Origin: Minisyncoccota bacterium
GTDB taxonomy: Bacteria > Patescibacteriota > Minisyncoccia > UBA6257 > 02-FULL-45-10c
Length of the DNA stretch: 64,000 nucleotides
Direction of reading: 5' to 3'
Assembly (NCBI GenBank): GCA_028716745.1
Contig: JAQUPE010000001.1
Span: 30,203 to 94,202, forward strand
Below are positions 57,790-61,800 of this stretch, piece by piece. Every line of letters starts with the position of its first letter. Position 1 is the stretch's first letter. Under the pieces are notes generated by a model. It was given only the letters and a program-made list of their open reading frames with translations, did no database searches and was not told the origin of the DNA. Made by a program: the position numbers and the translations under genes.

Positions 57790-58830
57790 ATGGATATCAA
57801 AATAGGACAATTAGTTAATGACTTGCTTCGCGGCCTTGATTCCAGGCAGAAAGAAGTTCTGGAAAAGAGGTATGGCTTGAAGGACGGCAAGAATATGACC
57901 CTGGAAGCTTTGGGTGATATTTATGGCGTCACCAGAGAAAGAATGAGGCAGATTCAGAATTCAGCTTTAGAAAAGCTGAAGGCATCCGACAAAAACGGTC
58001 TTTTGGCGAAATTCACCAAAAAGGTTAGCGACCACTTAAAAAATGTCGGTGGTCTCAGAAGAGAGACTTTGCTTTTGGCTGATTTGCAGCTCTTATTTGC
58101 GGAATCATCTTCTTCTGTCTTGGACAATAAGGCAAAATTCTTAATGGAAGTTGCCGGATTTGATTATTCGCCGGAAGATAAGAGTTTTTACTCTTATTGG
58201 TTTTTAAATAATGAAAATAAAAAGAAAGCGACTGACTTTGTTGCTAAGCTCGCCAAGTTTTTGGAAAGCAAAAAGCAAACTGTTGTTACAGCTGGAACTA
58301 TAGATAAAATTTTTAAAGAAGCTATTAAGCCGCATAATTTGAAAGAATTGGTGGCTTTGAATTATATTTCTGCTTCCAAGAAATTCCATGTAAATCAGTT
58401 TGGAGATTTCGGATTGTCTAATTGGTCCGAAGTAAATCCTAAAACTGTCCGTGATTGGGCGCATTTGATTTTAAGAAAAGAAAATAAGCCTCTTCACTTT
58501 ACGGAAATAGCCAAAATGATCGGCAATGTCCGCGATGTTTCAAAAGTTATGAATCCCCAGACTGTCCATAACGAGCTTATAAAAGATATTCGCTTTGTTT
58601 TGGTTGGCCGCGGAATTTATGGATTGAAGGAGTGCGGGTTTGAACCGGGCACTACTAAAGAGGTAATGGTTCGTCTTTTAAAACAGAAGGGACCGATGTC
58701 TCCGGATGAATTATTGAAGATGGTTTTGAAAGAGAGAATTTTGAAAAAGAATACTATCCTCGTTAATTTGCAGAATAAGAAGCATTTTAAGAGATTGGAA
58801 GACGGCCGATATTCGGTTAATATGGCCTAA
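57790..58830 (+). CDS. protein with N-terminal sigma-70 region-4-like HTH and a long unknown C-terminal domain
   Basis: RQKEVLEKRYGLKDGKNMTLEALGDIYGVTRERMRQIQNSALEKLK matches the region 4.2 pattern; placement at the N-terminus is atypical. Confidence 0.45.
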   Translation: MDIKIGQLVNDLLRGLDSRQKEVLEKRYGLKDGKNMTLEALGDIYGVTRERMRQIQNSALEKLKASDKNGLLAKFTKKVSDHLKNVGGLRRETLLLADLQLLFAESSSSVLDNKAKFLMEVAGFDYSPEDKSFYSYWFLNNENKKKATDFVAKLAKFLESKKQTVVTAGTIDKIFKEAIKPHNLKELVALNYISASKKFHVNQFGDFGLSNWSEVNPKTVRDWAHLILRKENKPLHFTEIAKMIGNVRDVSKVMNPQTVHNELIKDIRFVLVGRGIYGLKECGFEPGTTKEVMVRLLKQKGPMSPDELLKMVLKERILKKNTILVNLQNKKHFKRLEDGRYSVNMA

Positions 58831-58945
58831 GAAATCATAAACAAACAAAATTAAGGGAGCAGATGTGAGTTCGTCATGTAAATGGCAGACTCACAATTGC
58901 TCCCTTTTTTAATTCTAAAATTAAGGTTAAAATAAAGATAATCGC

Positions 58946-60260
58946 ATGATAGAAAATATATTGGATTTTTTAATGCCTCATATTACGGGAATCGGCAATT
59001 CGGCTGCCGACATTTTTAACGCTTTTTGGTGGATTCTAATTCCTTTTGGAATGCTGTTTTGGTGGCTTGAATTTTGGGCTTGGGGAACCGGTCTTATGTG
59101 GAAAAAGGCTATTAAGTGGGTTTTGCTGGAAGTAAAAGTTCCCAAGGATATTTTAAAAACTCCAAAGGCGATGGAAAATATTTTTACTTCGCTGCACGCT
59201 CTTTATGGATCCGATCCTAATTGGGAGGAGAAATTTTTTAGGGGAAAATCTTTGTTTTGGCTTAGCGCCGAGATGGTAAGTTTTGGCGGCGGGGGAATAC
59301 ATTTTTATTTCAGGGTTCCTGCGGCAAATCGCAATTTGATTGAAAATGCCCTGTATGCGGAATATCCGGACGCGGAGGTTTCTATTGTTGATGATTATAT
59401 TAATTTGGTTCCGGATGTTCTTCCAAATGAAGTTTTTGATATTTGGGGGAATGATTTTGTTTTAGCCAAGGACAGCGCTTATCCGATTAGAACTTATGAA
59501 TTTTTTTGAAGAGAACGTGGAAGAGAGAAGGCTGGATCCGGTTTCGGCTATTACCGAAGTAATGTCTCGCCTTAAAGAAGGCGAGGCTATTTGGCTTCAG
59601 CTTTTAATAAAGCCGGTAAGTGATAAATGGAAGAAGGGAGGAGAGGAGATAAGAGACAAAATAATGCAGAGGAAAAAAGATAAAAAGAAGGGCCCTCTTG
59701 AGGAATTTGCAGATGGCATATTTCACTTTTTCAGAAATCTTACGAAAGGCGCAGTTGAGCCTCCGGATTGGCCGGAAAAGAAAAAATCCGAAGAAAAGCT
59801 GAAGATGCTTGTTTTGTCTCCAGGCGAAAGAGAAGTGCTGGAAAGAGTTGAAGCAAAAATAGCCAAGCTCGGGTTTGAATCGATGATTCGTTTTGTATAT
59901 ATAGACAAAAAAGATAGTTTTACTCCGATGAATGTTTCCGCGGTTACGGGAGCTTTCAAGCAGTTTAATACGCAAAATTTAAATTCTTTTAAAATGGACG
60001 GAGATACCAGAACGGCCGTAACCGACAGAAAATTTACGACAAAAAGCTGGTTCAGAAAAAAGAAAATATATTTCCGCAAAAGAAAGATTTTCGACTGGTA
60101 TAAATTGCGCGGATTCTCTTCGTCTAAGCCGTACCCGGTTTTGAATGCGGAGGAATTGGCCACTATTTTCCATTTTCCGATTACTTCTGTCGGGGCTCCG
60201 TTGTTGCGTCGTTTGGAAACTAGAAAAGGAGAGCCGCCTCATGGCCTTCCAATAGAATAA
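58946..60260 (+). pseudogene. membrane protein gene split by a frameshift at a T7 homopolymer (58946..59509 + 59496..60260)
   Basis: Two overlapping ORFs in adjacent frames join into one ~437-aa product if the T-run 59501-59507 had 6 T; N-terminal part has two or more transmembrane helices. Confidence 0.4.
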
Positions 60261-60264
60261 AAAT

Positions 60265-61800
60265 ATGTCAGAAATAAGTTTTTTAGGGCAGACAAATTTT
60301 AGGGGGCAGGAAAAGAAATTCGGCATTAAGTCGGATGATCGCCGCCGCCATATTTATGTTGTCGGAAAAACCGGCATGGGTAAAACAACCTTGCTGGAAA
60401 ATATGATAATTGCCGATATGAACGCCGGACGCGGGGTAGGCGTTGTTGATCCGCATGGAGAATTAGCGGAAAAAATATTGGATTTTGTTCCGGAAGACCG
60501 CGTAAATGACGTCGTTTACTTCAATCCGGCAGATATGGCCTTCCCGATAGCGTTTAATCCGTTAGAGCAAGTAGGTACAGAATACAGGCATTTAGTGGCC
60601 TCCGGCATCATGGCGGTGTTTAAAAAGATCTGGCCGGATGTTTGGTCTGCCAGAATGGAATATATTTTAAACAATTCTTTATTGGCTCTTTTGGAATATC
60701 CGGGATCAACATTGCTTGGAATAATGCGTATTCTTTCGGATAAAGCTTATCGCCAGACAGTTGTGGAAAATCTTAAAGACCCGGTTGTTAAAAGCTTCTG
60801 GGTAAATGAATTTGCAAAATATACTCAGCGCTTGGAGAGCGAGGCCACGGCAGCTATTCAGAACAAAGTCGGACAATTTGTTACCAATCCTTTGATAAGA
60901 AATATTCTTGGACAGCCTCATTCTTCCATCAATATGCGCGATGTGATGGATAAAAAGAAAATATTAATCGTTAATTTATCAAAAGGAAGAATAGGCGAGG
61001 ATAATTCTTCTTTGCTTGGAGCAATGATTATTACAAAGCTTCAGCTTGCGGCGATGTCCAGAATAGAAGTGCCGGAAGCACAAAGAATAGATTTTAATTT
61101 ATATGTCGATGAGTTTCAGAACTTTGCCACAGATTCATTTGCCATGATTTTGTCGGAGGCGAGAAAATACCGCCTGGATTTGATTTTGGCGCACCAATAT
61201 TTGGGCCAGCTCGAAACAGACGGCAGTTCGCGCGTGCAAGACGCTATTTTCGGTAACGTCGGTACGATGATTTCTTTCCGTGTTGGAGCCGAGGACGGAG
61301 AATTTTTGGAAAAAGAATTTCAGCCGGATTTTATGATGAACGACTTTGTTAATCTTCCAAAATATAATTTTTATATAAAACTGATGATAGACGGCGTGGC
61401 TTCGCGTCCTTTTTCGGCGCAAACTATCGCCCCAATGCCGGTGCCTGAGGAAAATTTTAAAAATATGCTTATAGAGGCAAGCAGAAAAAATTACGGCACC
61501 CCTCAGGAGGTTGTGGAAAAGAAAATTGCCAGCGAGTGGGTAGGAGAAGGCGGAAAAGTTATGAATGACAGGTTGTCGCACCAAGGAGAACAATCTCTTT
61601 CTAAAGTTTTAGGCGCCCCGGCGGAAAACCGATCGTCTGAAGAAAAAGATTTTGTTCCGCATGAGCCGAGAAGGCCGGAACGGGAGAGAAAAGAAGTGGA
61701 TATTTCCGATTTAAGAAGAACCCTGGAGGAAGCGCTGGGAAAGAGTATTAAAGATGAAGATGATGAAGCGACTGGGAAGGAGGGAAAGCCGGAGCAGTAA
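60265..61800 (+). CDS. type IV secretion coupling-protein-like P-loop ATPase (VirD4/TraD/TraG family)
   Basis: Walker A YVVGKTGMGKTT, VVDPHGEL (the DPKGE-like motif), Walker B LYVDEFQNF, AHQYLGQLE; no N-terminal transmembrane anchor in this ORF. Confidence 0.55.
   Translation: MSEISFLGQTNFRGQEKKFGIKSDDRRRHIYVVGKTGMGKTTLLENMIIADMNAGRGVGVVDPHGELAEKILDFVPEDRVNDVVYFNPADMAFPIAFNPLEQVGTEYRHLVASGIMAVFKKIWPDVWSARMEYILNNSLLALLEYPGSTLLGIMRILSDKAYRQTVVENLKDPVVKSFWVNEFAKYTQRLESEATAAIQNKVGQFVTNPLIRNILGQPHSSINMRDVMDKKKILIVNLSKGRIGEDNSSLLGAMIITKLQLAAMSRIEVPEAQRIDFNLYVDEFQNFATDSFAMILSEARKYRLDLILAHQYLGQLETDGSSRVQDAIFGNVGTMISFRVGAEDGEFLEKEFQPDFMMNDFVNLPKYNFYIKLMIDGVASRPFSAQTIAPMPVPEENFKNMLIEASRKNYGTPQEVVEKKIASEWVGEGGKVMNDRLSHQGEQSLSKVLGAPAENRSSEEKDFVPHEPRRPERERKEVDISDLRRTLEEALGKSIKDEDDEATGKEGKPEQ

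Follow-up and report, generated by a model that had tools for sequence, protein, structure and literature searches.

A probable split coupling-protein module on the chromosomes of Patescibacteria, with its membrane-segment gene interrupted in one Minisyncoccota assembly

What is the role of an ATPase that resembles type IV coupling proteins (T4CPs), has no membrane anchor of its own, and follows a membrane-protein gene interrupted by a run of seven thymines (T7), when all of this is located amid housekeeping genes? This question is raised by a locus in a stretch of 64,000 nucleotides (nt) from a Minisyncoccota bacterium (contig JAQUPE010000001.1, positions 30,203 to 94,202), here designated the window, to which all coordinates refer. 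An earlier reading of the letters, termed the original prediction below, had proposed a DNA-translocation module related to conjugation or competence and possibly switchable through the T7 run. The analysis presented here indicates that the locus is probably a chromosomal split coupling-protein module conserved across the Patescibacteria, in which the parts of the motor are encoded by two genes, and that the T7 run is a one-off. The four open reading frames (ORFs) described before, at 57790-58830, 58946-59509, 59496-60260 and 60265-61800, are all present, and the locus is composed of the following elements, in which HTH denotes a helix-turn-helix protein and aa amino acids:

57696..57724, + strand: promoter-like site (TTTACA, 17 nt, TATAAT, extended TG), 66 nt upstream of the HTH gene
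57790..58830, + strand: HTH gene, encoding a multi-winged-helix DNA-binding protein of 346 aa with an N-terminal sigma-70 region 4, an RNA polymerase delta-like HARE-HTH domain and more predicted winged helices
58853..58912, + strand: long hairpin followed by U6, terminator- or attenuator-like by folding energy, between the HTH gene and the DUF8128 gene
58946..60260, + strand: DUF8128 (PF26449) gene, broken by one additional T; the product has a membrane segment and a cytoplasmic domain of predicted VirB4-like fold and is the counterpart of the N-terminal half in fused T4CP-type ATPases
59501..59507, + strand: T7 run causing the frameshift; the in-frame state is T6, and with the next GA the run forms U_UUU_UGA
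60265..61800, + strand: VirD4/TrwB-type ATPase gene (511 aa), without a membrane segment, starting 4 nt past the DUF8128 stop codon

The ATPase contains the Walker A motif GKTGMGKT (residues 34-41), the motif VVDPHGEL (60-67) and the Walker B motif VDEFQNF (281-287), all of which are invariant in the family, the first and the last in each of 20 sequences. A hydropathy scan gave no hydrophobic segment (maximum Kyte-Doolittle mean over 19 residues, 1.37), which agrees with the absence of an N-terminal transmembrane anchor noted earlier. Four Pfam models scored above threshold, namely TrwB_AAD_bind (PF10412, 42.7 bits), T4SS-DNA_transf (PF02534, 39.1), DUF87 (PF01935, 31.5) and TraG-D_C (PF12696, 28.3), of which DUF87 scored lower than both T4CP models PF10412 and PF02534, while HerA_C (13.9) and FtsK_SpoIIIE (13.6) stayed below the Pfam thresholds. 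The best NCBIfam match is a VirD4-like model of the CD1115 family, far below its cut-off, and the protein is far under every NCBIfam equivalog cut-off. A profile of the 20 sequences searched against the PDB retrieved TrwB (E 2e-6) and DotL (E 4e-5) only, and no HerA or FtsK chain. By hhalign, the ATPase is collinear with TraD of the F plasmid (NC_002483.1) over 309 columns (TraD residues 182-522) versus 110 columns with F TraC; the alignment to TrwB_AAD_bind covers ATPase residues 23-340, and the sequence alignment to TraD runs collinearly through the insert of the all-alpha domain. The DPHGE motif is a feature that we take to be HerA-like. As proposed in the original prediction, the ATPase sides with the T4CPs rather than with HerA or FtsK. 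In PADLOC, its best match was mad8 of the methylation-associated defence system MADS (61 bits), followed by DndH, and HerA models were also resembled; region 4 of the HTH protein matched MzaA, so related ATPase and HTH domains recur in defence systems. A defence role for the ATPase was rejected because its conservation is near-universal, syntenic and of the housekeeping type.

A candidate for the missing anchor is encoded by the gene upstream. Sequence comparison shows the DUF8128 and ATPase genes to correspond to the N- and C-terminal halves of single T4CP-type proteins of 810-910 aa, which occur on Bacillus and actinomycete plasmids and in the Bacillus phages G and CP-51. In PHROG family 5156 (824 positions), DUF8128 matches positions 76-345 (E 3e-17) and the ATPase positions 407-805 (E 1e-59). 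By hhalign, gp156 of phage G (825 aa) aligns with both profiles, residues 15-318 with that of DUF8128 (96%, E 3.6e-9) and residues 373-782 with that of the ATPase (99.9%, E 3e-32). An 833-aa protein of plasmid pBM69 of B. methanolicus (WP_003349917.1) matches DUF8128 at residues 53-311 (97.8%, E 1.3e-12), including the motif ...EELA..H.P...AP.L.RL, and its C-terminal half matches the ATPase. In gp91 of phage CP-51 (911 aa) and in a protein of an Embleya plasmid (WP_331738717.1, 812 aa), the match is weak but collinear, and tblastn hits to DUF8128 lie directly upstream of hits to the ATPase in Priestia, pBM69 and Shouchella plasmids. Both domains thus occur in the same order in the fused proteins, with significant homology for both halves, at 21-37% identity to the window ATPase. 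By this comparison, the Patescibacterial pair appears as a fission, or the fused form as a fusion, at the inter-domain linker; in the pair, the genes are divided at this linker and the only predicted membrane segment is borne by DUF8128 (a single hydrophobic stretch at about residues 20-46 of the complete 437-aa product), as expected from the N-terminal transmembrane helices described earlier. The Embleya protein has an N-terminal hydrophobic stretch and is therefore an unsplit counterpart of the pair, whereas the phage and pBM69 forms are without an N-terminal membrane segment. From the fused relatives, DUF8128 can be proposed as the anchor of the ATPase, and because the two domains are fused in plasmids and phages, the link between the neighbouring genes is stronger than had been suggested before.

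Searches by tblastn with the ATPase yielded 354 plasmid records (Streptomyces, Bacillus, Staphylococcus, Clostridium, Sulfolobus and haloarchaea) and, in the INPHARED phage collection, 36 phage records, mostly of SPO1-like Bacillus phages plus phage G; a scan of viral_contigs with the ATPase alignment gave 80 pattern matches, of which 0 were confirmed. Unlike the Patescibacterial pair, the fused proteins are single polypeptides encoded on mobile elements beside genes for replication-relaxation, PrgI, VirB4-like and cell-wall hydrolase proteins. A Replic_Relax protein adjoins the fused gene in CP-51, pBM69 and Embleya; further neighbours are conjugal transfer proteins and an 860-aa VirB4-like ATPase in pBM69, PrgI (PrgI/VirB3) and NlpC/P60 in Embleya, and the VirB4/TraG-P-loop ATPase gp155 in phage G. 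The two phage loci that were inspected (L085, gp155-gp156 of phage G; L086, gp87-gp96 of CP-51) include, in CP-51, the Replic_Relax protein gp90, the actin-like ALP protein gp96 and the putative sigma factor gp87. To judge from its members, the gene set, which is carried by lytic phages, resembles those of conjugation or partition; we know of no function assigned to it.

With VirD4, TrwB and TraD, the window ATPase shares the nucleotide-binding domain with Walker A and B motifs and above-threshold matches to curated T4CP models; it differs from them in having no anchor in the chain, in being associated with an extra VirB4-like N-domain from a separate gene, in its chromosomal location without relaxase or type IV secretion system (T4SS) genes found nearby, and in its scores below the NCBIfam equivalog cut-offs. 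A division of labour of this kind has a parallel in the Gram-positive plasmid pIP501, in whose tra operon both genes are located: its coupling protein TraJ is without a membrane domain and has been proposed to be recruited to the membrane by the separate membrane protein TraI. The likeness to EccE of type VII (ESX) secretion is much weaker, with no sequence similarity and no type VII context. In the model of the DUF8128 cytoplasmic domain, a VirB4 fold is predicted, 13 TrwK chains being placed first by Foldseek, and this fold would most simply be that of the VirB4 N-terminal domain. Like VirB4 (TrwK) together with VirB3, the module therefore combines a membrane segment, an N-domain of VirB4-like fold and a RecA-type ATPase, but it has no sequence match to VirB4 models or F TraC (the Pfam models CagE_TrbE_VirB and AAA_10 match neither protein of the pair) and its ATPase domain is closer to VirD4. 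A separate, genuine VirB4 is carried by Patescibacteria, according to a recent survey (PMC12102498). The same succession of membrane segment, region resembling the VirB4 N-domain and ATPase is found in CedB and CedD of the crenarchaeal Ced system, which are chromosomal, derived from a T4SS and serve DNA import rather than plasmid transfer (bioRxiv 10.1101/2024.09.27.615246). These proteins, however, belong to the HerA/VirB4 clade, the similarity of the window ATPase to the NCBIfam CedD model is confined to the surroundings of the P-loop (residues 7-79), and no CedA-like channel gene adjoins the module.

The module is a fixed element of Patescibacterial chromosomes. In 84 related loci, comprising L001 to L004 and 80 species-level loci, the order HTH, DUF8128, ATPase on one strand recurs, with the ATPase directly after DUF8128 in 81 loci (median distance between ORF boundaries, 10 nt) and the HTH gene directly before it in 78. 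The exceptions are contig ends and the loci L034 and L078, which have no ATPase, and L052 and L078, which have no HTH gene; L034 and L078, the only loci with sufficient room in which the ATPase does not follow DUF8128, could reflect rearrangement, loss or mis-assembly. In the window, the junction of the pair reads TAA AAAT ATG, a spacing of 4 nt which suggests coupled translation. More than 8,000 homologues of the ATPase were found, those among the matches listed being 62-82% identical. Median identity to the window proteins in the 46 loci with all genes is 61.7% for the ATPase, 53.2% for SecD, 52.1% for EF-P, 47.1% for SecF, 40.1% for DUF8128 and 39.2% for the HTH protein, and the ATPase is the best conserved of these six syntenic gene products in 39 of the 46. 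SecD-SecF is located upstream of the module in most loci, while EF-P downstream is variable. The remaining gene content of the window is of the housekeeping type (LigA, GatA, PheT, a penicillin-binding protein, a Mur ligase, DnaB, CysS, Asd and tRNAs, besides HrcA, GrpE and DnaK, assigned by synteny with the closest relative L001), and an Rfam scan detected tRNAs only. A conjugation or competence island, as originally envisaged, does not fit this setting, which is syntenic across at least 80 species (DnaK/GrpE/HrcA, SecDF, EF-P).

Several observations concern the loci themselves. Locus L022 contains tandem ATPase paralogues after DUF8128 (3546-5324, 748 bits; 5548-6996, 502 bits), which fits the roughly two T4CP homologues per genome reported in PMC12102498. 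Four module-bearing contigs labelled Binatia, Bathyarchaeia, Pacearchaeota and Bdellovibrionales (L052, L067, L074 and L081, respectively) are probably mis-binned or mislabelled; three of them also carry secDF and/or the HTH gene, whereas L067 is a 2.2-kb fragment with the pair only. Many titles of the form 'uncultured Candidatus Saccharibacteria' look generic.

The HTH protein, too, is largely as first described: Pfam assigns Sigma70_r4 to residues 12-64 (E 8e-15), at the N-terminus, and in addition HARE-HTH to residues 219-281 (E 3e-9). Among the sigma domains only region 4 was matched, with no match to region 2, and the rest of the model consists of generic winged helices and the delta-like HARE-HTH domain. 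Comparison with Replic_Relax proteins, and with a 350-aa HTH protein encoded near a Sulfitobacter homologue, showed both to be unrelated. The promoter-like site in front of the gene matches 11 of 12 consensus positions and was the top site of a 7.8-kb scan, as a match to the consensus only, the total of such sites in the scan being no higher than in shuffled sequence. The hairpin behind the gene has a folding energy of -35.1 kcal/mol (z = -9.0 versus 200 shuffles). With a promoter-like site before it and a hairpin of -35 kcal/mol with U6 after it, the HTH gene may be transcribed separately in this genome; the hairpin cannot exist in L001 to L004, since the intergenic gap there is just 51 nt. 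A functional link of the HTH protein to the pair would rest on conserved adjacency.

How, then, is the interruption of the DUF8128 gene to be explained? Positions 59501-59507 are a run of precisely seven T (T7), with GA behind it, so that ORF1 (58946-59509, 187 aa) ends with ...GAA TTT TTT TGA, and ORF2 (59496-60260, 254 aa), with its ATG at 59496, lies in the +1 frame relative to ORF1. Reading T7 as T6, computed as a deletion of one T, yields one product of 437 aa, as had been predicted. Against 17 homologues this product is gap-free at the junction, with YPIRTYEFF/EENVEERRLDP (the slash marks the junction) compared to the consensus YPIRTYEYFExxVEEQRLDP, and the junction is flanked by the invariant residues Y184, E188, E193, R195, D197 and P198. 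The fused query retrieved 723 homologues; among the matches listed, the full-length proteins are each encoded by a single ORF (about 395-440 aa) and carry PF26449, and the sole half-length match of 100% identity is this metagenome-assembled genome's own annotation. The DUF8128 family profile scores 276 bits with ORF1 (positions 2-176) and 415 bits with ORF2 (positions 173-424). A profile search gave 3,156 clusters at 50% identity, and all 84 related loci carry the gene uninterrupted, as a single ORF, so that what is split here is one gene in every relative. Among the 37 relatives that were aligned here, 6 carry T6, 16 carry T4 and 15 carry T3 or fewer, and none carries T7: relatives with Phe-Phe carry GAN TTT TTT GAN, in frame, and most have Tyr-Phe with T4 or fewer. 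Compared with an ancestral T6, the window therefore carries a single additional T, and the relatives do not conserve the tract as a slippery site. Of 40 positions with a conservation of 90% or more in 81 relatives, 39 are retained across the two halves (leave-one-out control, median 95%), with no sign of decay. Given the single ORF in all relatives, the retained residues and the unconserved tract, the break is a one-off in this assembly, due either to an error in the sequence or consensus or to a mutation of very recent date, and no evolved switch.

Between these two origins, an error or the consensus of a minority allele is, as a rough estimate, somewhat the better supported account. The assembly as a whole has no general signature of homopolymer errors: of 886 homopolymer runs in the window, only T7 at 59501-59507 splits a gene mid-way, other candidates lying at gene junctions, and the overlapping ORFs at 37244-37913 were rejected as a second frameshift, the second ORF being a complete ribosomal protein L21. 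This observation speaks for the rival view, to which we roughly assign a little less than an even chance, that T7 is a genuine recent inactivating mutation and DUF8128 a young pseudogene in this population, maybe partly rescued. The same view is favoured by the position of ORF2 exactly +1 to ORF1 with a tract that ends in a stop codon, and by the location of the break in a low-confidence loop of the DUF8128 model (residues 182-195). If T7 is real, U_UUU_UGA would be a 'shifty stop' at which tRNA-Phe, slipping by +1, would restore precisely the T6 protein, with the expected junction peptide ...TYEFFEENVEER...; a rescue could also come from transcriptional slippage or from a new start at the AUG at 59496, which precedes the stop codon by 9 nt. 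The pseudogene view is opposed by the lack of decay in both halves, by the wholeness of the gene in every relative together with the very strong constraint on the partner ATPase, and by an independent Logan assembly of the public run SRR22315506, identified as the source of the reads. Two Logan contigs are identical to the window, one at 56402-59487 (L091) and one at 60672-64000 and beyond (L092), and the first stops 14 nt before the run, which is compatible with ambiguity or low coverage there; the intervening 1.2 kb was not recovered by look-ups, those in the contig index with the 187-aa, 254-aa and 511-aa products giving no match and only flanking genes leading to the Logan contigs. In either case, the frameshift matters only as a warning for annotation, as two 'hypothetical proteins' of this assembly are one gene.

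With the gene restored, the module represents a coupling protein that is split in two and fixed on the chromosome, its partner domain being newly recognised, and its most likely function is that of a domesticated, membrane-anchored substrate translocase. DUF8128 would tether and scaffold a hexameric VirD4-like motor at the cytoplasmic membrane, and the motor would use ATP to pass a substrate from the cytoplasm, with DNA or a nucleoprotein as the most probable cargo, on to a channel in the membrane, for which the MPF-FATA-type T4SS encoded elsewhere by most Patescibacteria is the obvious candidate. The HTH protein with its sigma region 4 and HARE-HTH domains may act as a DNA-binding adaptor or regulator of the pair. 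In the survey by Quinonero-Coronel et al. 2025 (PMC12102498), VirD4-type T4CP homologues are reported for 2,918 of 3,035 Patescibacteria genomes (96%), just 148 of 5,713 homologues being located near virB4, while VirB4, as a clade nested in MPF-FATA, occurs in 2,417 genomes (80%) and relaxases in only 103. These orphan T4CP homologues, near-universal in the phylum and rarely near virB4, very probably belong to the same gene family as the window ATPase. In the passages of the paper that were searched, no mention was found of a DUF8128 partner, a split/fusion relationship, a sigma-4/HARE neighbour or secDF synteny, and a literature text search for 'DUF8128' found no mention either.

Several points weigh against the coupling-protein reading and the role derived from it. 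DNA or nucleoprotein as the substrate is a choice that we infer, and so is the link of the module to a T4SS, since phmmer searches with Replic_Relax, TraI, TraC, the pBM69 VirB4-like protein and gp155 detected no relaxase and no relative of Replic_Relax or VirB4, either in the window or, up to a distance of 6 kb, in the 84 loci; Pfam annotation of L001 to L004 likewise gave no relaxase or mating-pair-formation genes. The relaxase and VirB4-like genes that the original prediction proposed to look for nearby were thus not found in the window or in this part of the related loci. The likeness of DUF8128 to VirB4 is at the level of the fold only, in a model of pLDDT 71.8 with TrwK matched as a chain without a specified part, and hhalign of DUF8128 against F TraC gave no match and hence no tie to VirB4 at the sequence level. 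The HTH gene, with its own promoter-like site and terminator-like hairpin, may simply encode a neighbouring transcription factor. Furthermore, T4CP homologues occur in more genomes than VirB4, and in Ca. Southlakia epibionticum a T4CP homologue, not necessarily the orthologue, was reported as non-essential while T4SS genes were essential (PMC12102498); taken together, these two observations point to a role independent of the T4SS.

Such a role is the core of a further explanation, possible but distinctly less likely than not to hold, in which the split T4CP would be an exapted housekeeping translocase that serves no secretion system and performs, jointly with its sigma-4/delta-like DNA-binding partner, a core task such as the import of DNA to salvage nucleotides, FtsK-like handling of the chromosome at division, or tethering of the nucleoid or RNA polymerase to the membrane. 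It would account for an ATPase more conserved than SecD, SecF and EF-P, for the fixed synteny in a housekeeping neighbourhood beside secDF, for the lack of a relaxase found in the window and the 84 loci, and for a partner protein whose domains are otherwise known from RNA polymerase subunits. The excess of T4CP over VirB4, the scarcity of T4CP genes near virB4 and the dispensable Southlakia homologue point in the same direction, and exaptation of the Patescibacterial T4CP is allowed for by the authors of the survey (PMC12102498). According to the same source, however, T4CP genes are often located away from virB4 in ordinary systems too, and the closest non-Patescibacterial relatives of the module all reside in conjugation-type clusters. 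The more specific proposal that the split T4CP and its sigma-4/RNA polymerase delta-like partner form a T4SS-independent core machine, a membrane-anchored translocase of DNA or nucleoprotein for purposes such as nucleic-acid import or chromosome handling, we regard as rather unlikely. If true, it would explain both the wider spread compared with VirB4 and the higher conservation compared with SecD or EF-P.

That T7 is an evolved phase-variable or programmed-frameshift switch governing the membrane anchor is highly improbable, even as a rough estimate: although the site lies in a conserved gene and a homopolymer that runs into a stop codon is the textbook form of a 'shifty stop', the tract is unconserved with T7 in none of the 37 aligned relatives, every relative is in frame, no Shine-Dalgarno-like element was found upstream of the run and no structure at a suitable distance, and seven bases are short for known contingency tracts. 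Of the original prediction, the sequence observations, the T4CP-like ATPase and the split gene have stood, while the possible switch and the conjugation or competence setting were not supported, a split and probably domesticated coupling protein being the likelier reading.

A few features of the window lie outside the conserved module. Three small ORFs (75, 137 and 112 aa) are found 3' of the ATPase gene at 61836-62998; of their products, those of 75 aa and 112 aa at least appear hydrophobic, and only the 137-aa product has a counterpart in the closest relative. Near-identical terminator-like hairpins at 62626-62647 and 63016-63037 (AAAACACCCACC[C/T]GGGTGTTTT) flank the small membrane-protein ORF 62660-62998, the latter hairpin being bidirectional and shared with the end of the efp gene. 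At the other end of the window, the ORFs 1556-2602 (348 aa) and 2684-4441 (585 aa) have no Pfam match and are separated by an intergenic T7 run at 2648-2654.

Patescibacteria account for a substantial part of the diversity of bacteria; they dwell on host cells and seem to obtain most of their building blocks by import. The VirD4-like ATPase reported for about 96% of their genomes (PMC12102498) can now be placed as one half of a two-gene unit, the other half of which, DUF8128, was previously an uncharacterised family. This unit is a split version of a class of coupling proteins from Gram-positive plasmids and phages and travels with a specific DNA-binding protein. The findings presented here give a defined candidate complex of three proteins and a clear evolutionary origin in an MPF-FATA-type conjugation system.

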